Assembly: GCF_016806735.1 (NCBI RefSeq)
Contig: NZ_CP060530.1
Span: 930,001 to 962,000 of the forward strand
Length of the DNA: 32,000 nucleotides
From: Candidatus Micrarchaeum sp.
GTDB lineage: Archaea; Micrarchaeota; Micrarchaeia; Micrarchaeales; Micrarchaeaceae
Reading direction: 5' to 3'
Part shown: piece by piece, positions 5,040 through 24,534 of the stretch
Position numbering within the stretch: position 1 is the first letter of the stretch
How the letters are laid out: each line of letters starts with the position of its first letter
The notes under the pieces: generated by a model
Database searches by the model: none
Seen by the model: only the letters and a program-made list of their open reading frames with translations
What the model was told of the DNA's origin: nothing
Made by a program: the position numbers and the translations under genes

Positions 5040-5717
5040 TCAGCGCTTTGGCTTTATTACGGTGCCTTCGTGCTTCCTGCGCGAGATGGCACTTTCTATG
5101 TTCTTTATGCTTTTGTCAAGGAAGTGAAGCTCGGTGTTGGAGCGCTTGGCTATTTTGCAGGCTATGACGTCGAAGACGAAATTCGAGCGCGCGACCCTTG
5201 TATCGTCCTTCATCGCAAGTTCAAGGAGCTCGTCTATGTCCATGGCATTAACGAATTTTCCCTTTTCGTTGTAGATGCCCTTGGGAGTGCTGACATTTAT
5301 CACGTGCGTAGCATCGGCAGACTCTGCTAGAAGCATGGTCACGGTATCAGTGCTTATTCCCGGTATTATTCCACCGGTAATCACTATGCTGCTGTTTTTG
5401 ATCTCTGAGCGGATGCCGTTCGGATCTCCTCTGTACACTGCAGATGAATTCCCGAATGCCGAGTGCAGCAGCCATGCATTTAGGTATGTAGTCTGTATCC
5501 CTATGTTGTCCTTTATGTACTGCGATTCCGTGAATTCTGATGCAGCGGTTATGTATTTTTTGCTTGTGAAGCCCCCTCCAACCACTATTATGAATGACGT
5601 TCCCTTGGAAGCGTGCTTCTTTATCAGTTCGACGAAGCTCTTTATAAAAAGGATATCCAATTCTCCGTTCTCCTTCGTAAGCGTGCTTCCTCCCAGCGAA
5701 ATCGCTATGGTACCCGT
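5040..5717 (-). CDS. pyrH: archaeal-type UMP kinase (amino-acid kinase fold); start codon unresolved
   Basis: TIAISLGGSTL...IIVVGGG...ITGGIIPGISTD...FVFD matches archaeal PyrH end to end. The conserved N-terminal IAISLGGS lies upstream of the track start (TTG 5660) and directly after an in-frame TGA (5720-5718) with no ATG/GTG/TTG between them. See findings. Confidence 0.8.
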   Translation of the reverse strand, partial: TGTIAISLGGSTLTKENGELDILFIKSFVELIKKHASKGTSFIIVVGGGFTSKKYITAASEFTESQYIKDNIGIQTTYLNAWLLHSAFGNSSAVYRGDPNGIRSEIKNSSIVITGGIIPGISTDTVTMLLAESADATHVINVSTPKGIYNEKGKFVNAMDIDELLELAMKDDTRVARSNFVFDVIACKIAKRSNTELHFLDKSIKNIESAISRRKHEGTVIKPKR

Positions 5718-8630: not shown

Positions 8631-10061
8631 ATGGCAGGAAAATATTACAATCTCGACAACATGTTAAAACCTAAAAGCGTTGCCATAATAGGGGCTTCGC
8701 AAAGCCCTGAAAAAGTGGGCCACATAATAATGCAGAACTACCTCAACGTCGGTTATGACGGTGATCTTTATCCGGTAAATGTCAGCGCTGAAGGGCTCAT
8801 ACTCGGCAAGAAGTCCTACAAGAGCGTGCTCGACATCAAAAAACCCCTTGACCTTGCCGTAATAGCCATACCTGCGAAGTTCGTTCCTCAGTCACTGGAA
8901 GAATGCGGAAAGGCAAAAGTGAAAAGCGTTATAATCGTAAGCAGCGGCTTTTCGGAAGTTGGCGATACCGGGCTGCAGGAGCAGATAGTGTCGATAGCCA
9001 AAAAGTACTCGCTGCCTGTGCTCGGGCCCAACTGCCTCGGAGTCATGGATTTGCGCTCGAGGGTTGACACCATGTTCCTGCCGACATTCAAAATAGACAA
9101 GCCCAGCATAGGGGGCGTAAGCTTTGCCTCCCAGAGCGGGGCCGTAGGCAGTGCCGTCCTTGACCTGATATCGCATGAGAACTTCGGGCTCTCCAAGTTC
9201 ATATCTTACGGCAACGCCGCAGTTGTTGACGAAGTGGATATACTAAACTACTTGGGGCATGACCCAGACACCAAAGTAATAATATTTTACATAGAAGGAG
9301 TGAGGCGCGGAAAGGAATTCGTCGAGGTCGCAAAAGAAGTGACAAAGCTCAAGCCAGTCATAATGATAAAGGGAGGAATAACCCCGGCAGGATCGAGCGC
9401 GGCACATTCGCATACTGCATCGCTTGCTGGCAGCTATGCAGCATATGAAGCGGTATTCGAGCAGTACGGATTCATACAGGCAAAAAGCCTTGACGACATG
9501 CTTTATTTCGCGAAGATATTCGAGGCGCAGCCGTTGTCCACTAAAAAGCGCATTGCGATAATAACCAATGGCGGAGGCGTCGGAGTGCTCGCGGCAGATT
9601 CGCTGTACTTGAACGGCTTGCAAATGGCCGAGCTTTCCGATGATGCAAAGAAGGAACTCAGGAAGGTCATGCCGCCAATAGTGAACATGAGCATGCCGAT
9701 GGACATGGCAGGAGATGCAGACGACAAGAGGTTCGGAGCCGCGATGGAGGTTCTCTCCAAGGACCCGAACGTAGATGCGCTCATGGTAATCTCGCTGTTT
9801 CAGACTCCCGGTGCCGATTCCAGGGTAGCGGCGATGATAATAAAATATGGTTCTGAAGGGAAGAAACCAATAGTAGTAGTGAGCCCTGGTGGCAACTACG
9901 CCGAAGTGCACAACAACATGATGGAAAGCTCCGGAGTCCCAGTATACCCTTCGCCGGAAGATGCTGCCAAGGCGCTTGCCGCTTTGGTAAAATATTCTGA
10001 GTATAGGGAGAGAATGGGGTCTTTGAATGCCGAAGATAAAAATATCAAAAAAAGCAAATGA
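8631..10061 (+). CDS. acdA: ADP-forming acetyl-CoA synthetase, alpha subunit (CoA-binding plus ligase-CoA domains)
   Basis: N-terminal LKPKSVAIIGAS CoA-binding Rossmann motif, GPNCLG, and phosphohistidine loop AAHSHTASLAGS. Confidence 0.8.
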   Translation: MAGKYYNLDNMLKPKSVAIIGASQSPEKVGHIIMQNYLNVGYDGDLYPVNVSAEGLILGKKSYKSVLDIKKPLDLAVIAIPAKFVPQSLEECGKAKVKSVIIVSSGFSEVGDTGLQEQIVSIAKKYSLPVLGPNCLGVMDLRSRVDTMFLPTFKIDKPSIGGVSFASQSGAVGSAVLDLISHENFGLSKFISYGNAAVVDEVDILNYLGHDPDTKVIIFYIEGVRRGKEFVEVAKEVTKLKPVIMIKGGITPAGSSAAHSHTASLAGSYAAYEAVFEQYGFIQAKSLDDMLYFAKIFEAQPLSTKKRIAIITNGGGVGVLAADSLYLNGLQMAELSDDAKKELRKVMPPIVNMSMPMDMAGDADDKRFGAAMEVLSKDPNVDALMVISLFQTPGADSRVAAMIIKYGSEGKKPIVVVSPGGNYAEVHNNMMESSGVPVYPSPEDAAKALAALVKYSEYRERMGSLNAEDKNIKKSK

Positions 10062-18863: not shown

Positions 18864-19679
18864 TCATATGCCTGCAGAGGGCCCCATGCGATAATTGCGC
18901 TTGCGAAGTAGCAGTATTACAAGTATTATTATTGCTGCTGTTTCTGCGGCTATTAATGCGTACAGCGTTGATTCGTTGTTCTGCTGGACCGTAACTGGTT
19001 TTGGAGGTATAGTCGTCGGAACAGTAGTTGAAGGTATTGTAGTATGTGATGAATTCTGCGGTATTGTGGTAGGGATTATGGAAGTGGTAAGCGATGTGCT
19101 TGGGATTCCCTTATTTTTTATTACTAGAACCTGCAACGTAGCATTCGTCAAGTTTGTGTATATGTAGCTCGAATTATAGGTAAGCCATTTTTGAGGTTTT
19201 ACGTAGCTTCCCCCATAGTAATTTAAGTTTTGTAGCACGCCACCGGACCACGACCATGTAGAAAGAGTTATTGCTTGGCCACCGGTTATCAGTTTTATAG
19301 GCTGGTAAGAACCTGAAGAACTGACAAACTTTACAGAACTTCCTGTGCTCCCATCAACTGCTATAGCTATTGCATCGCTTATGCCACTAATGGTTGAATT
19401 GCCTGGAGGCACATTGACATTGAAAGGAGTGAGCAGGATCAGTGAAAGATTATATGAAGAGTATGTTTTATTGTTAATGACCGCGTATGTGCCTGGACTT
19501 ACAACAAGGCGCGTAGAGGAGATGCCAACCGAACCACCTATGGCACCGTTTATTGTGGTATAGTTGCCTAAAGAGAAAGTAAAGTATGGCTTGCTTATTG
19601 ATGCGAACGACAACTGCGAAGCGTGTGCCATTGCAAAAACCATAAGGAAAACCAAGACCGCGTATATTGTTATATTCAT
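18864..19679 (-). CDS. secreted, C-terminally membrane-anchored putative surface glycoprotein
   Basis: Sec-type signal MNITIYAVLVFLMVFAMAHA/SQ, many N-x-S/T sequons, a Thr/Pro stalk (TTSIIPTTIPQNSSHTTIPSTTVPTTIPPKP), then TM AAIIILVILLL plus RKRN. Lies 18 nt downstream of pilin-like gene copy 1. Confidence 0.6.
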   Translation of the reverse strand: MNITIYAVLVFLMVFAMAHASQLSFASISKPYFTFSLGNYTTINGAIGGSVGISSTRLVVSPGTYAVINNKTYSSYNLSLILLTPFNVNVPPGNSTISGISDAIAIAVDGSTGSSVKFVSSSGSYQPIKLITGGQAITLSTWSWSGGVLQNLNYYGGSYVKPQKWLTYNSSYIYTNLTNATLQVLVIKNKGIPSTSLTTSIIPTTIPQNSSHTTIPSTTVPTTIPPKPVTVQQNNESTLYALIAAETAAIIILVILLLRKRNYRMGPSAGI

Positions 19680-19697
19680 GCAATCACTTAATACAAA

Positions 19698-21767
19698 CTA
19701 ATTTATCTCGTTTATTCCAGGCCCACATGAACCGCCGCCACCGCCAGTCCCTATATGCATATGATACCAGCCGCCACTCATCGACTGTCTGGTATCCAGA
19801 CCAGGACACCAATTTGTATTGGCCGTAGAGTATGAATTTGGACCATCGACATATATGCCACCATATCCTGAATTGCCTCCGCCCGAGCTTATATTCATTG
19901 TTCCTCCGGGCCAGTAACAGAAGCCATAGTTGTTTGAATGGTCGTTATATGCTTGAACAGTACATTCAGGGGGTCCAGAAGTTATCTGTGCTGCAGCGTA
20001 TACAAAGGCAGCAATCGATATTCCACCTGAGCTTGAAGAGGTTGCAGAGACTGTATATGAACCAGAATTTTGGTTGCATATGGCTGCATAGCCTGTTTCG
20101 TAACTGTCATTGCCATGCGTATATTCTATCTGGCTGCAACCAGATGGAAGAGACACACTGCTGCATTGAAACCAACCGCAACCAACCATTATTACAACTG
20201 CGGATGGAGAAGTGGAAACGGAATATGATAGCGAATGCGAACCTGAATCTCCTGTCGTCGACGAAGAGAAAGTTGAATAGCCAGGGCCGCCTTTAACGCC
20301 GAATATGGCCACAGCCAAATCAGGGCTGCCAGTTGTTATAGTGCATACGCCAGAAGTTGTAACGCCAACATCTGCATAATTGCTATTAGATTCAGTAACG
20401 CTTGACCATGATATCCCGATTCCTCCGTTTCCTGCCCCGCCAGCGCAGAAATATGTGCTGTAACCTGACATTGTTGCATTGGCTTCTCCGCCTATCGAAT
20501 CGCCAGTGTTGCCCTGTGAAGACATGTAGTATATGGTGCTTGTTGTGGTGGATGTAGTGGTCGAGGTTGTAGTGGATGTTGTTGTTGATGTGGATGTAGT
20601 GGTCGAGGTAGAGGTTGTGGTTGATGTAGAGGTCGTAGTTGATGTTGATGTAGTAGAGGTTGAGGTTGAGGTTGTGGATGTTGTCGTGGATGTTGAGGTT
20701 GTCGATGTGGAAGTGGTTGTTGATGTTGAGGTTGTGGTTGAGGTGGATGTTGTTGAGGTAGAAGTCGAGGTAGTGCTTGTACTTGTGGATGTAGTAGAGG
20801 TTGAAGTTGTAGTGGAAGTTGAAGTAGTTGTTGATGTTGATGTAGTAGAGGTTGAGGTTGAGGTTGTGGATGTTGTGGTTGAGGTGGATGTAGTAGTGGA
20901 AGTCGTAGTTGATGTTGAAGTTGTCGAGGTGCTTGTGCTCGTATATATTGTGCTTGTTGTAGCAGAAACCTTGAAGTTTGCAGTTATAGAAACGTTGGAA
21001 CGCAACGTAAGTGTCGTGGGTTCGGCAGCAAGCGTACTTAGACTGGATGCGCCGGAACTTATAGCCCAGGAACCGAATGCGTAGCCTGCAGGGGACACTG
21101 CATACAGAGTATAGGTCCCGGAAGCCAATGGCACTGTTATATTGTTGTGGTATATGACCCCATTTATCACTATTTCTCCACTGGTTGGACTTGTATAAAG
21201 AGTAACATTATAGAAAGGGACGTATGCAGGACTCATTGATTGTGTAGACGCACCTGCAGTTACATATGGTCCTGTGCATACGCCTGATTTGCATGTATAA
21301 TAATGAAGGTCGAAAGTGGCCGTTGTAGTACTGCCGAGCGGCGGCTCCACGCTCCCAGGTATGGAAACAGCACATATTACCCTAGTACCTGAACTAACAT
21401 TTCTGGGCAGACATGTCCCGTTATAGACGTTCGTGCCGGTACTTCCAATATTGGTAAGAGTTACGCTTATGGCGTTTGCGGGAAGGTGCATGCCTACTCC
21501 CAGACTGTCAAGGAAAACTACTGTGTATTTTATTGGTATGCTGTGCGCAGTATTTACACTGGTCAGCGTGCTCTGAACGCAGGGAAGAAGAGGCTCTATG
21601 TTGCATACTGGTGGAAGATAACTGATCGGGGCCTTTGGGCCTGAAATCACGAATATGAAGGCAACGAATATGGCGATTATGAGAAGCGCCCAAGCGTATA
21701 CGCTAAGCATTTCTATTGCAGATTGTGCATTATCCCTAATAAATAGGTGCCTAAGCTGCTCTTTCAT
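19698..21767 (-). CDS. large surface protein, copy 1: type IV pilin-like (class III) signal, shared N-module, Thr/Ser stalk, Cys/Gly-rich C-terminal domain of unknown type
   Basis: N-terminus MKEQLRHLFIRDNAQSAIEMLSVYAWALLIIAIFVAFIFVI resembles archaeal prepilin signals (xAQSAIEyLxxYxWALLII). The N-module ends with the InlB B-repeat-like YTLYAVSPAGYAFGSWAISS...ITANF. About 135 aa of T/S repeats follow, and I cannot assign the final ~275 aa. Confidence 0.7.
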   Translation of the reverse strand: MKEQLRHLFIRDNAQSAIEMLSVYAWALLIIAIFVAFIFVISGPKAPISYLPPVCNIEPLLPCVQSTLTSVNTAHSIPIKYTVVFLDSLGVGMHLPANAISVTLTNIGSTGTNVYNGTCLPRNVSSGTRVICAVSIPGSVEPPLGSTTTATFDLHYYTCKSGVCTGPYVTAGASTQSMSPAYVPFYNVTLYTSPTSGEIVINGVIYHNNITVPLASGTYTLYAVSPAGYAFGSWAISSGASSLSTLAAEPTTLTLRSNVSITANFKVSATTSTIYTSTSTSTTSTSTTTSTTTSTSTTTSTTSTSTSTTSTSTTTSTSTTTSTSTTSTSTSTTSTSTSTTSTSTTTSTSTTTSTSTTSTSTTTSTTSTSTSTTSTSTTTSTSTTTSTSTTTSTSTTTSTTTSTTTSTTTSTIYYMSSQGNTGDSIGGEANATMSGYSTYFCAGGAGNGGIGISWSSVTESNSNYADVGVTTSGVCTITTGSPDLAVAIFGVKGGPGYSTFSSSTTGDSGSHSLSYSVSTSPSAVVIMVGCGWFQCSSVSLPSGCSQIEYTHGNDSYETGYAAICNQNSGSYTVSATSSSSGGISIAAFVYAAAQITSGPPECTVQAYNDHSNNYGFCYWPGGTMNISSGGGNSGYGGIYVDGPNSYSTANTNWCPGLDTRQSMSGGWYHMHIGTGGGGGSCGPGINEIN
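20533..20931 (-). repeat. imperfect tandem coding repeats (Thr/Ser stalk of copy 1)
   Basis: ACN/TCN codon arrays encoding TSTSTTTSTSTTT. A 47-nt string (gttgatgttgatgtagtagaggttgaggttgaggttgtggatgttgt) recurs at 20638 and 20830, a 192-nt offset, which indicates a higher-order unit. Confidence 0.85.
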
Positions 21768-21796
21768 AGTTTAGATTGATGTAGTAGCATTTAAAT
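20932..21796 (-). repeat. direct repeat copy A (~865 bp: promoter plus 5' module of the pilin-like genes)
   Basis: Hand alignment to 26410..27273 shows identity except a 7-mismatch patch (21006-21018), 3 mismatches near the start codon, 2 mismatches just upstream of it, and one 1-nt indel in a G-run (21628-21631). Confidence 0.9.
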
Positions 21797-21797
21797 A
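21789..21797 (-). promoter_or_regulatory. TATA-like box for pilin-like gene copy 1
   Basis: The minus strand reads TATTTAAAT about 26 nt upstream of ATG 21767. It is conserved in copy 2. Confidence 0.4.
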
Positions 21798-21960
21798 GTT
21801 TTTAATTCGCATATGCGGTGCAGGTTTAGGCACATGATCTAAAGCAATTGGGTCGGCAAGTATAACACCTTTTTAAACCATGTTAATTAAGCCAGAGACA
21901 GAACGCGGATTATCTTTCTTTAAGGCAGAAGAACGTAGAGTTTCCTTGGCAACTAAGCTA

Positions 21961-21966
21961 TTTATA
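21961..21966 (+). promoter_or_regulatory. TATA-like box for tRNA-Arg
   Basis: TTTATA centred about 27 nt upstream of tRNA position 1 (21990). Confidence 0.4.
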
Positions 21967-21989
21967 GGAAAGCTCGCAAATAACTCTGT

Positions 21990-22093
21990 GGATCTGTAGC
22001 GTAGTTTGGATAGCGCACCCGGCTTCGGACCGGGCGGTCGCGGGTTCAAAATGACGTATGCAAGGCATACCCATGGAAATCCCGCCAGATCCG
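21990..22093 (+). tRNA. tRNA-Arg (anticodon TCG) with a 29-nt intron inside the T-loop
   Basis: Hand-folded. Acceptor GGATCTG/CAGATCC is 7 perfect bp. D arm is GCGT/GCGC. Anticodon arm is CCCGG-CTTCGGA-CCGGG. Variable region is CGGTC. T stem is GCGGG (22040-44) / CCCGC (22081-85), but 36 nt lie between the T-stem strands instead of 7. Removing 29 nt restores TTCAAAT. Discriminator is G and no CCA is encoded. Confidence 0.85.
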
Positions 22094-22138: not shown

Positions 22139-22876
22139 ATGGCGTGGTGCATGAATTTGAATTACAAAAATGTTTGCGCTGCCATTTTAATAGTTGTTGC
22201 AATCGGAATGGCGGCTTATGCAGCTTATAGCATACCTACTGAAGCGCCCAATCTCGGCGGCACCCAATATTACGGATTGTGTAGCAGGGGCTCGGCTCTA
22301 TTCGGGATAAGGAATCAGTCAGCTTATATTGGATATAACAATTCCGAAAACCAATTTGAGGAAAACGGCTCCTTAAACTCTATTTCGTGCTACTACAGTA
22401 TTGGCATTATGTATCCTGTATTCAACGGTACTTCCGAAGCCAATATTGCAAGCAACTTAACAGTCCCAGAAAGTTATGCGCATTATGCATACCCCACCGG
22501 GATCAACATAAATGTCATAGAGTTCAGGAATAGCAGTTATGTTTCCGGATTCGCAAAAAAATTTTACGCCAAAAGTGAAAAGTCAATACGCTATGACAGC
22601 AACGGCACGGCTTCGGAAAACGGCACAATCAATATAACCTTCGAATCTCGATATGATAGCGTATATGGCGTAAATGCTTCGGAAATACGCTTCGTGCCGA
22701 TATACAGAAATTACGAAGAATACCAGCTAGCCTTCAAAAAAGGGAACTATTTTGTAATAATAAACACTTATGGGATAAATGGCTCTTATGACACCGAATA
22801 CGCAAAAGACATTATGCTGAACGACTATCTGCGCATATGCGGCACTAGCTATAATAAGAGTTTATTTTGTTTATGA
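22139..22876 (+). CDS. type II membrane-anchored extracellular protein (island paralog family, member 1)
   Basis: N-terminal TM VCAAILIVVAIGMAAYAAY followed by an N-x-S/T-rich ectodomain. Shares the C-terminal motif YEEYQLAFKKGNYFVIINTYG with the next two genes. Alternative start at ATG 22151. Confidence 0.55.
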   Translation: MAWCMNLNYKNVCAAILIVVAIGMAAYAAYSIPTEAPNLGGTQYYGLCSRGSALFGIRNQSAYIGYNNSENQFEENGSLNSISCYYSIGIMYPVFNGTSEANIASNLTVPESYAHYAYPTGININVIEFRNSSYVSGFAKKFYAKSEKSIRYDSNGTASENGTINITFESRYDSVYGVNASEIRFVPIYRNYEEYQLAFKKGNYFVIINTYGINGSYDTEYAKDIMLNDYLRICGTSYNKSLFCL

Positions 22877-23537
22877 TTAGTTCCGCTAAGCTTAGGGAAT
22901 CGTTCCCGTATTCTGAGGAAGGAACATACGAATTTATTATAACGCTGCCAGTTACGTTCATATACTTGAATAGCGTAGTATACTGGTAGTCCGGCATATA
23001 ATACGGAAGGGTAAGATTTACCAGGCTTGGACTAACATTGAACAATGCTACGGACTTCACAAGATATAATTTTACCGCATTTCCGGAAAACGTATAGTTG
23101 ATTATTTTCCTGCCTTTGTAAGTATATCCGGTTATTGACTGGTTTTGGTTATTGCTGTATAGCATTGAGCTGAAGGCCTGCTGCGCGGTGCTGTTGTTGC
23201 TCATGAGGTATAATGCCGATGTTATAACCCCGGGATATTCGGTTTTCAGGCTTGCATTAGTCAGATTGAAAAGGGATACGGAAGCCTCCAGATACCCTGC
23301 TGATCGCAATGATGCCGGCATTGCAGTAATCCGGTTAACAATCACGGGAGTGTATAATGAAGAATTTACCACGTAATTCATATCTGATGGAACAAGGTTC
23401 AAATAGGCAAACCCATGTTTTGCAGTAGCAGGGGAATGATACGCCAATACCAAGCCTAAGACAGCAAGCATAGCTATTATAAAGATAAGAGTGATAATTG
23501 GCGCTTTTCCATTCTCTTGTGCATGCATAACCTTCAC
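22845..23537 (-). CDS. type II membrane-anchored extracellular protein (island paralog family, member 2)
   Basis: N-terminal TM IITLIFIIAMLAVLGLVLAY, a sequon-rich ectodomain, and C-terminal motif YQYTTLFKYMNVTGSVIINSYV. 10 nt downstream of member 3. Confidence 0.55.
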   Translation of the reverse strand: MKVMHAQENGKAPIITLIFIIAMLAVLGLVLAYHSPATAKHGFAYLNLVPSDMNYVVNSSLYTPVIVNRITAMPASLRSAGYLEASVSLFNLTNASLKTEYPGVITSALYLMSNNSTAQQAFSSMLYSNNQNQSITGYTYKGRKIINYTFSGNAVKLYLVKSVALFNVSPSLVNLTLPYYMPDYQYTTLFKYMNVTGSVIINSYVPSSEYGNDSLSLAELIINKINSYYS

Positions 23538-23547
23538 TTTTGAAGCT

Positions 23548-24534
23548 TTATTTAAGCTGGCCGTAGTTGGATTTTAGTTTTAGATACAATTTGTATGCCA
23601 AATTGTTTACATAAGATTCATTCACCTTTCCCGCAGGGAAATACGCGTCCAGAATTATTATATAATTTTTATAAGGCGGAACGGAGACCTGGTACATGTC
23701 GTAATTTTTGAACACCTTTCCGTACAGTCCAGATGATATAACCATGCCGTTCAGCGTGGAGCTGCCGTTCAAGCTGGCGGCTGAGCCAATGATTGTAGTA
23801 TTATAATACGATTCATTTTTTATGGTTGAATTTACGTTATTGGCGTTTGTTGAATTGTATATTAGCGTACCGTTCTTGTTGAAGTAGAAATAACCAGTTC
23901 CGTTGACAGGATAGTAATAGAGAGCATATGTATAATTTGCAGTTCTGGAATCGCTGAGTTCCATAATATCAACCTTTATTGCAGTAGGATATATGCCGTT
24001 CTCAGTCAAATTATCCAGTGGAACATATAGAACCTGGTTCGGAAACGAATTGTAGGACATCACGTTGTACAAAGCACCTGCAGCATAAAATCTCCTATAA
24101 ATGTAGTAACTTACATTTTTGTATGAATCCGAATATGTTTCTATCGAAGTATTGTAATCGGATGCGAAAGGTATGTTACCTAAGATATTTGTAGAATTCA
24201 ATATCCTTCCAAAAATAATTTCATCAGTAATATTAGTCTGGTTAGGAATTATCGTTGTAGTGACTGACGGAACAATCGAGGAAGTCGTTTTTGGTATCGT
24301 CGTGATTATTGTAGTTGTTGCTATTGGGGCTACACCTACATGAAAGTACGAATATGCGATTATTCCAAGAACTGCGATTATTGCTATTACTGAAATTATA
24401 TATTTCAAAAAGTGCTTTCCAGTAAGTGGTTTTGATTCGGGAATAGAGGGAGACACATACTCCTGTCCAGAAAGGTTATTTTCTACAATCGGTTGTTCAG
24501 TAACAGGATTATTTGCATCAATACTGTCGCTCAT
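23548..24534 (-). CDS. type II membrane-anchored extracellular protein (island paralog family, member 3)
   Basis: ~45-aa cytoplasmic N-terminus, TM IISVIAIIAVLGIIAYSYF, a Thr/Ile stalk, an Asn/Tyr-rich ectodomain with over 12 sequons, and C-terminal motif YDMYQVSVPPYKNYIIILDAYF. Its ATG overlaps the stop of copy 2 (ATGA). Confidence 0.6.
   Translation of the reverse strand: MSDSIDANNPVTEQPIVENNLSGQEYVSPSIPESKPLTGKHFLKYIISVIAIIAVLGIIAYSYFHVGVAPIATTTIITTIPKTTSSIVPSVTTTIIPNQTNITDEIIFGRILNSTNILGNIPFASDYNTSIETYSDSYKNVSYYIYRRFYAAGALYNVMSYNSFPNQVLYVPLDNLTENGIYPTAIKVDIMELSDSRTANYTYALYYYPVNGTGYFYFNKNGTLIYNSTNANNVNSTIKNESYYNTTIIGSAASLNGSSTLNGMVISSGLYGKVFKNYDMYQVSVPPYKNYIIILDAYFPAGKVNESYVNNLAYKLYLKLKSNYGQLK

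Follow-up and report, generated by a model that had tools for sequence, protein, structure and literature searches.

In ARMAN-2 (Ca. Micrarchaeum acidiphilum), 56% of the tRNA genes are disrupted (Fujishima et al. 2011, PMC3239211), and introns at tRNA position 59/60 have been described there in tRNA-Cys(GCA), where the bulge-helix-bulge (BHB) motif is relaxed, and in tRNA-Pro(GGG), where it is strict (PMC3239211). The ε2 splicing endonuclease of ARMAN-2 cleaved a 59/60 intron in vitro (PMC3239211). Its key residues are the triad Y236/H251/K282 together with K161, R275 and W384, and K161 lies within an ARMAN-specific loop (residues 158–168) that confers broad substrate specificity (PMC3488258). 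Homodimer assembly and activity on both strict and relaxed BHB motifs have been demonstrated for the ARMAN-2 enzyme specifically (PMC3239211, PMC3488258). Introns in the T-loop at 59/60 were therefore already described in this genus in 2011; since those of ARMAN-2 were reported (PMC3239211), the kind is known, and the Arg(UCG) intron analyzed here adds a member to it, as one more, ordinary example. The paper on Ca. Micrarchaeum harzensis A_DKE does not mention tRNAs, and RNA-seq reads of A_DKE are available under BioSamples SAMN15702898 and SAMN15702859 (PMC8975820).

The window, the whole 32,000-nt stretch of DNA analyzed here from the ultrasmall, acidophilic archaeon Candidatus Micrarchaeum sp., contains at 21990–22093 on the forward strand what we take, with a probability of about 0.92, to be the genome's single, functional tRNA-Arg(UCG) gene, carrying a BHB intron in its T-loop whose splicing we infer. 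The stem coordinates that a first-pass annotation had assigned, the 36-nt gap between the T-stem strands and the 29-nt insert were all reproduced from the sequence, and the perfect 6-bp hairpin GTATGC-AAG-GCATAC at 22056–22070 is present as that annotation described it (Table 1). Deletion of 22051–22079 in silico yields a 75-nt cloverleaf with the T-loop TTCAAAT, which ARAGORN calls as a clean tRNA-Arg(tcg); CCA is not encoded at the 3' end of the gene. The unspliced 104-nt stretch folds as a cloverleaf plus hairpin at −40.9 kcal/mol and beats 200/200 dinucleotide shuffles (z = −2.7), while the T-arm segment alone is a weak outlier (z = −1.75, with 13/200 shuffles folding equally well). Upstream of the gene, the box "ctatttata" is kept at equal distance in the orthologs of the genus, and comparable boxes are also found upstream of other tRNA genes in the same genome.

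Table 1. Features of the tRNA-Arg(TCG) locus, in window coordinates, and of two further tRNA-Arg genes, in genome coordinates.
Feature	Position	Strand	Remarks
TTTATA box, candidate archaeal promoter	21961..21966	+	24–29 nt upstream of the tRNA 5' end; read from the sequence, putative function
5' exon, 61 nt	21990..22050	+	acceptor 5' strand, D-arm, anticodon arm, variable loop, T-stem 5' strand, T-loop 54–59 (TTCAAA)
Acceptor stem, 7 bp	21990-96 / 22086-92	+	
D-stem	21999-22002 / 22013-16	+	
Anticodon stem	22018-22 / 22030-34	+	anticodon TCG at 22025-27
Variable loop, 5 nt		+	
T-stem	22040-44 / 22081-85	+	GCGGG / CCCGC; encloses 36 nt, not 7
Central BHB helix, 5' strand TTCA (T-loop 54–57)	22045..22048	+	pairs with 22074-22077
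5' bulge AAA	22049..22051	+	predicted cut between 22050 and 22051
BHB intron, 29 nt, tRNA position 59/60	22051..22079	+	sole strict-BHB excision at the locus yielding a tRNA in splice-and-rescan
Inner helix h' and hairpin	22052..22073	+	U22052-A22073, G22053-C22072, small internal loop, 6-bp hairpin 22056-61 / 22065-70, loop AAG
Central BHB helix, 3' strand TGGA, intronic	22074..22077	+	
3' bulge AAT	22078..22080	+	predicted cut between 22079 and 22080
3' exon, 14 nt	22080..22093	+	T-loop position 60, T-stem 3' strand, acceptor 3' strand, discriminator G
tRNA-Arg(TCT)	genome 160723-160829	-	32-nt intron at the identical site, between GCGGGTTCAAA and TCCCGC; BHB splice scan
tRNA-Arg(CCT)	genome G000:C1:330538-330635	-	21-nt intron at 59/60; site and T-arm as in Arg(TCG) and Arg(TCT)

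A strict 3-4-3 hBHBh' motif can be drawn across the insert, with the 5-bp T-stem serving as the outer helix h and a central helix made of three Watson-Crick pairs and one U·G. Both flanking helices are at least 2 bp long, h having 5 bp and h' 2 bp followed by the 6-bp hairpin; the weak points of the motif at this locus are the shortness of h' next to the bulge and the U·G within the central helix. Scored explicitly, the strict BHB lies 2.3 kcal/mol above the minimum-energy fold, which has a 6 × 6 internal loop in place of the BHB, so that energy minimization by itself does not yield the motif; an energy gap above the minimum fold is usual for bulges that are stabilized by the enzyme. In each bulge the endonuclease cleaves between the second and third nucleotides, and this established rule, applied to the motif, delimits the intron as 22051–22079 and places the predicted junction at 59/60. 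The strict BHB thereby fixes a junction that had been left anywhere from 56/57 to 59/60, and it replaces the relaxed motif that had been considered likely. Since the motif is strict, broad-specificity cleavage, which had been thought a requirement, is not obviously needed for the Arg(TCG) intron. Folding had been proposed as a check for a cleavable bulge motif, and the motif is present at both junctions. In a scan of the whole genome, approximately 97,600 strict-BHB candidates were each spliced in silico and ARAGORN was rerun on the products, which returned exactly the 22051–22079 excision as tRNA-Arg(tcg). Other identities were considered for the insert and rejected: a guide RNA would not fit within 29 nt, and a self-splicing group I or group II intron would have a catalytic core of hundreds of nucleotides. 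Inspection of the intron by eye revealed no C/D-box motifs, and no Rfam family other than tRNA matched anywhere in the window.

ARAGORN with default settings calls no tRNA in the window, and its intron mode, which searches the anticodon loop only, missed the Arg(TCG) locus when run on the whole genome; the prediction that standard scanners can miss such genes is thus borne out for ARAGORN in both modes. The Rfam tRNA model skips the T-arm of the unspliced gene and scores it at 30.8 bits against a threshold of 29. No second TCG-anticodon arm was found within the tRNA-like matches of the genome, and a BLAST search of the gene against its own genome matched only the locus itself and Arg(TCT), so that the check for another intact tRNA-Arg(TCG) in the genome found none. 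This gene is the sole tRNA able to read CGA in the genome, and it probably also reads CGG, because no tRNA-Arg(CCG) was found there; the two codons are rare yet used, each making up about 0.9 per 1000 codons in a set of 489 long ORFs. A scanner that, like ARAGORN, makes no call here would leave the genome seemingly short of one arginine decoder, and the practical value of the finding accordingly lies in annotation, where the only decoder of CGA goes uncalled by ARAGORN.

Introns in the T-loop are also found in other tRNA genes of this genome, including Arg(TCT) and Arg(CCT) (Table 1) and, in the BHB splice scan, tRNA-Leu(CAA), where the intron lies at 58/59 or 59/60. An "intact" tRNA-Arg(cct) that ARAGORN reports by default at 330560-330636 looks mis-folded, and the unspliced form scores 34.1 bits with Rfam. 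On the reverse strand of the window, 28917–29025 resembles tRNA-Pro(GGG), with 43 nt between the T-stem strands CCGAG and CTCGG. Read by eye, these appear to include an insert of 16 nt at 53/54 and, at 59/60, a BHB intron of 20 nt (TTCA/TGAA, bulges AAA/AAT), a layout that is the one published for ARMAN-2 pre-tRNA-Pro(GGG), although a strict two-round BHB script gave no solution. Also on the reverse strand, 30684–30793 is a tRNA-Leu(GAG) gene with a 21-nt anticodon-loop intron, which the BHB splice scan identifies as Leu(gag) and ARAGORN intron mode mislabels as Arg(cct).

Forty genomes of the order, including that of the Micrarchaeum window, were searched and the orthologs of tRNA-Arg(TCG) parsed. 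Within the genus, the intron is found at the identical nucleotide in 7/7 other genomes; in the other genera of the family it is present in 10 and absent in 4 (2 more were not resolved), and in the sister family of the order it is absent at 8/8 resolved loci. This distribution implies gain or loss of the intron in the course of the family's history. The 20 intron-bearing loci, counting the window gene, comprise 17 distinct T-loops, all interrupted at the same site by introns that range from 21 to 82 nt and are otherwise hard to align. The intron-less orthologs score 62–68 bits against the Rfam tRNA model, and their T-loop is TTCAAAT (TCCAAAT in two), which is the predicted spliced product. Exons are identical at 72–74 of 74 positions within the genus, and the intron varies in both length and sequence. 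The longest example is a side observation in its own right: the ortholog at G002:C7, in the same genus, carries at the same site an 82-nt intron, nearly three times the usual length, that folds as a long branched helix (−25.7 kcal/mol).

Across the 17 distinct orthologs, the central helix is paired in 67/68 cells, compared with 13–38/68 in shifted registers. Its intron strand is TGAA in 12, TGGA in 4 and TGCA in 1. The bulges are similarly constrained, the 5' bulge being AAA in 15/17 and the 3' bulge AAT in 13/17 (ACT in 3, ATT in 1). Inner pairs 1–3 are formed in 44/51 cells by 11 pair types, as against 9–34/51 when the register is shifted by 1–3 columns, and they are kept by exchange among GC, CG, AT and GU alternatives, a pattern of compensatory changes that constitutes covariation. 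In 2000 shuffles of the inner segments, the observed length of the anchored helix was never reached.

These comparisons bear on the possibility that the locus is a decayed pseudogene, in which a 29-nt insertion, left as a mobile-element scar or by a slip, inactivated the tRNA-Arg while another tRNA decodes CGA and CGG. The lack of an ARAGORN call and the low Rfam score (just 30.8 bits) could be read in this way, as could the location in a strain-variable region and the truncated copy of the gene in a related genome (G004, described below). We nonetheless consider decay very unlikely: no other tRNA with a TCG anticodon exists in the genome, little or no variation is seen in the exons across the genus, in contrast to a freely changing intron, the insert occupies the same nucleotide in 11 genera with its BHB kept by compensatory changes, and the promoter box is conserved. 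A pseudogene would not be expected to leave such a pattern of conservation.

The genome encodes one tRNA-intron endonuclease gene, for a 390-aa EndA (G000:C1:40419-41588, minus strand), which aligns over residues 10–390 with the ARMAN-2 ε2 enzyme (4FZ2 chain A; E = 7.7e-167) and is collinear with it through three units; Pfam identifies in EndA one catalytic domain and, in addition, N-terminal domain matches. The key residues are all conserved at an offset of +3 (Y239, H254, K285, R278 and W387), and the specificity loop reads GTYKLSNHGTL in EndA and GTYKVSEHGNL in 4FZ2, with the lysine kept. As judged from these sequence features, the EndA of this genome is an ε2-type three-unit splicing endonuclease, and the suggested determination of the endA architecture thus yields a 390-aa three-unit ortholog of the ARMAN-2 enzyme, of the ε2 type that had been named as one possibility. 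An RtcB ligase is also encoded (G000:C1:369800-371104, minus strand; E = 6.1e-167). Full-length orthologs of the three-unit enzyme were found in 22/23 family members and 14/15 sister-family members searched, and such orthologs are widespread in genomes titled Candidatus Micrarchaeota. Genomes whose tRNA-Arg(TCG) is intron-less encode the ε2 enzyme too, so the enzyme allows for the intron without being a predictor of it.

It could also be imagined that the insert is never removed and that a 36-nt T-loop is retained, either because the enlarged T-arm works or because the hairpin has another role, for example as a protein-binding element. The stable 6-bp hairpin inside the insert fits this idea, yet the hairpin sequence varies, the insert ranges from 21 to 82 nt, and conservation is limited to the elements recognized by the endonuclease, namely the TGRA pairing with the T-loop, the two 3-nt bulges and the bulge-adjacent helix. 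The T-loop and D-loop of tRNA engage in a conserved interaction, which retention of the insert would disrupt. Moreover, the matching enzyme is encoded in the genome, and the ARMAN-2 enzyme cuts 59/60 introns in vitro (PMC3239211). Retention of the insert is in our estimate just as improbable as decay of the gene.

The gene, the motif with its conservation and covariation, and both enzyme genes are shown directly, and the conserved structure together with the encoded enzymes suggests how the precursor would be cut and its exons ligated. Transcription would probably start from the TATA box about 25 nt upstream and give a pre-tRNA of roughly 104 nt. In this precursor, T-loop residues 54–57 (UUCA) are predicted to pair with UGGA near the 3' end of the intron, which together with the T-stem and the intron-internal helix would complete the strict hBHBh'. 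A homodimeric three-unit ε2 endonuclease would then cut at the modeled positions, between 22050 and 22051 and between 22079 and 22080, and RtcB would ligate the exons, of 61 and 14 nt, to give a 75-nt tRNA whose T-loop is UUCAAAU and which would then receive CCA.

Eight ORFs neighbouring the gene were scanned, of which six are without a Pfam match (18864-19679, 19698-21767, 22139-22876, 22845-23537, 23548-24534 and 24531-27170), one encodes a wHTH protein and one an RNase HII; none of the eight matched an integrase family. The two large Pfam-less ORFs, 19698-21767 and 24531-27170 (both on the minus strand), share a similar 5' module and bracket the tRNA gene together with three smaller Pfam-less ORFs. 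Window segments 20666–22061 and 26150–27279 both match one segment of the related genome G004, at 81–83%. G004, which belongs to the same genus and is a 54%-complete metagenome-assembled genome (MAG) that may be chimeric, has a tRNA-Arg(TCG) gene 100% identical to that of the window in a neighbourhood that is arranged differently. Its contig G004:C35 carries the full copy at 9614-9717 (minus strand) and, 4.2 kb downstream, a truncated copy at 5370-5444 (minus strand), in which the promoter and the 5' exon are retained along with some 14 nt of the intron, similarity stopping in the loop of the intron hairpin. The truncated copy and the rearrangement could be real strain variation or could reflect chimeric MAG assembly. 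The proposal that the gene sits within an accessory island is partly supported overall, by the six Pfam-less ORFs around it and by the rearrangement of the region in G004. Use of the tRNA as the att site of an integrated element in G004 was considered and rejected as the main reading, as a full copy upstream with a 5' fragment downstream misfits simple site-specific integration and the MAG is only 54% complete.

The truncated copy in G004 hints that the intron hairpin, beyond being a passive substrate of the endonuclease, may be a recombination breakpoint used repeatedly, from which the surface-protein island next to it becomes rearranged. We regard this as a quite unlikely conjecture; if true, island dynamics would be tied to how non-canonical tRNA introns arise or turn over in Micrarchaeota. 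Least probable of all is the reading of the insert itself as a recombination or integration scar of a variable island, with the T-loop as a hotspot for attachment or breakpoints and the BHB as secondary: the end of the G004 truncated copy within the intron hairpin loop, 4.2 kb from the full copy, the paralogous repeated gene modules in the window region and proposals that integrating elements disrupt tRNA genes (PMC3239211) would be in keeping with it, but the G004 geometry does not fit simple att-site integration, G004 is only 54% complete and possibly chimeric, introns at the same site occur in Arg(TCT), Arg(CCT) and Leu(CAA) away from the island, and no integrase match exists among the eight neighbouring ORFs.

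Taken as a spliced BHB intron, the Arg(UCG) insert leaves the picture of archaeal tRNA splicing unchanged. It resembles the ARMAN-2 pre-tRNA-Pro(GGG) in lineage, in the 59/60 position, in the strict hBHBh' motif and in the ε2 enzyme family (PMC3239211, Fig. 1C), and differs from it in that the Pro(GGG) precursor has two introns, at 53/54 and 59/60, whereas Arg(UCG) has a single intron of 29 nt with its own hairpin (PMC3239211). With the ARMAN-2 pre-tRNA-Cys(GCA), which has a 13-nt intron, it shares the 59/60 position and the enzyme family (PMC3239211, Fig. 4; PMC3488258), but the motif of the Cys intron is a relaxed hBH (bulge-helix-loop), whose cleavage requires broad specificity, while that of the Arg(UCG) intron is a strict 3-4-3 BHB. 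The geometry is also that of the canonical archaeal intron at 37/38, in which a 5-bp stem closes a 7-nt loop whose first four bases pair with the 3' end of the intron, and in both cases the cuts, which for Arg(UCG) are predicted, separate the intron from loop base 6 on one side and from loop base 7 on the other. Unlike the canonical intron, that of Arg(UCG) is positioned on the T-arm (54–60) rather than on the anticodon arm (32–38), and for this reason it is missed by intron-aware scanners that examine 37/38 only. The non-canonical introns of Thermoproteales likewise occupy many positions, the T-loop included, and the fraction of disrupted genes tracks the presence of a broad-specificity enzyme (PMC3239211); those introns, however, belong to another phylum, where the enzyme is an (αβ)2 heterotetramer convergent with the ε2 form (PMC3488258).
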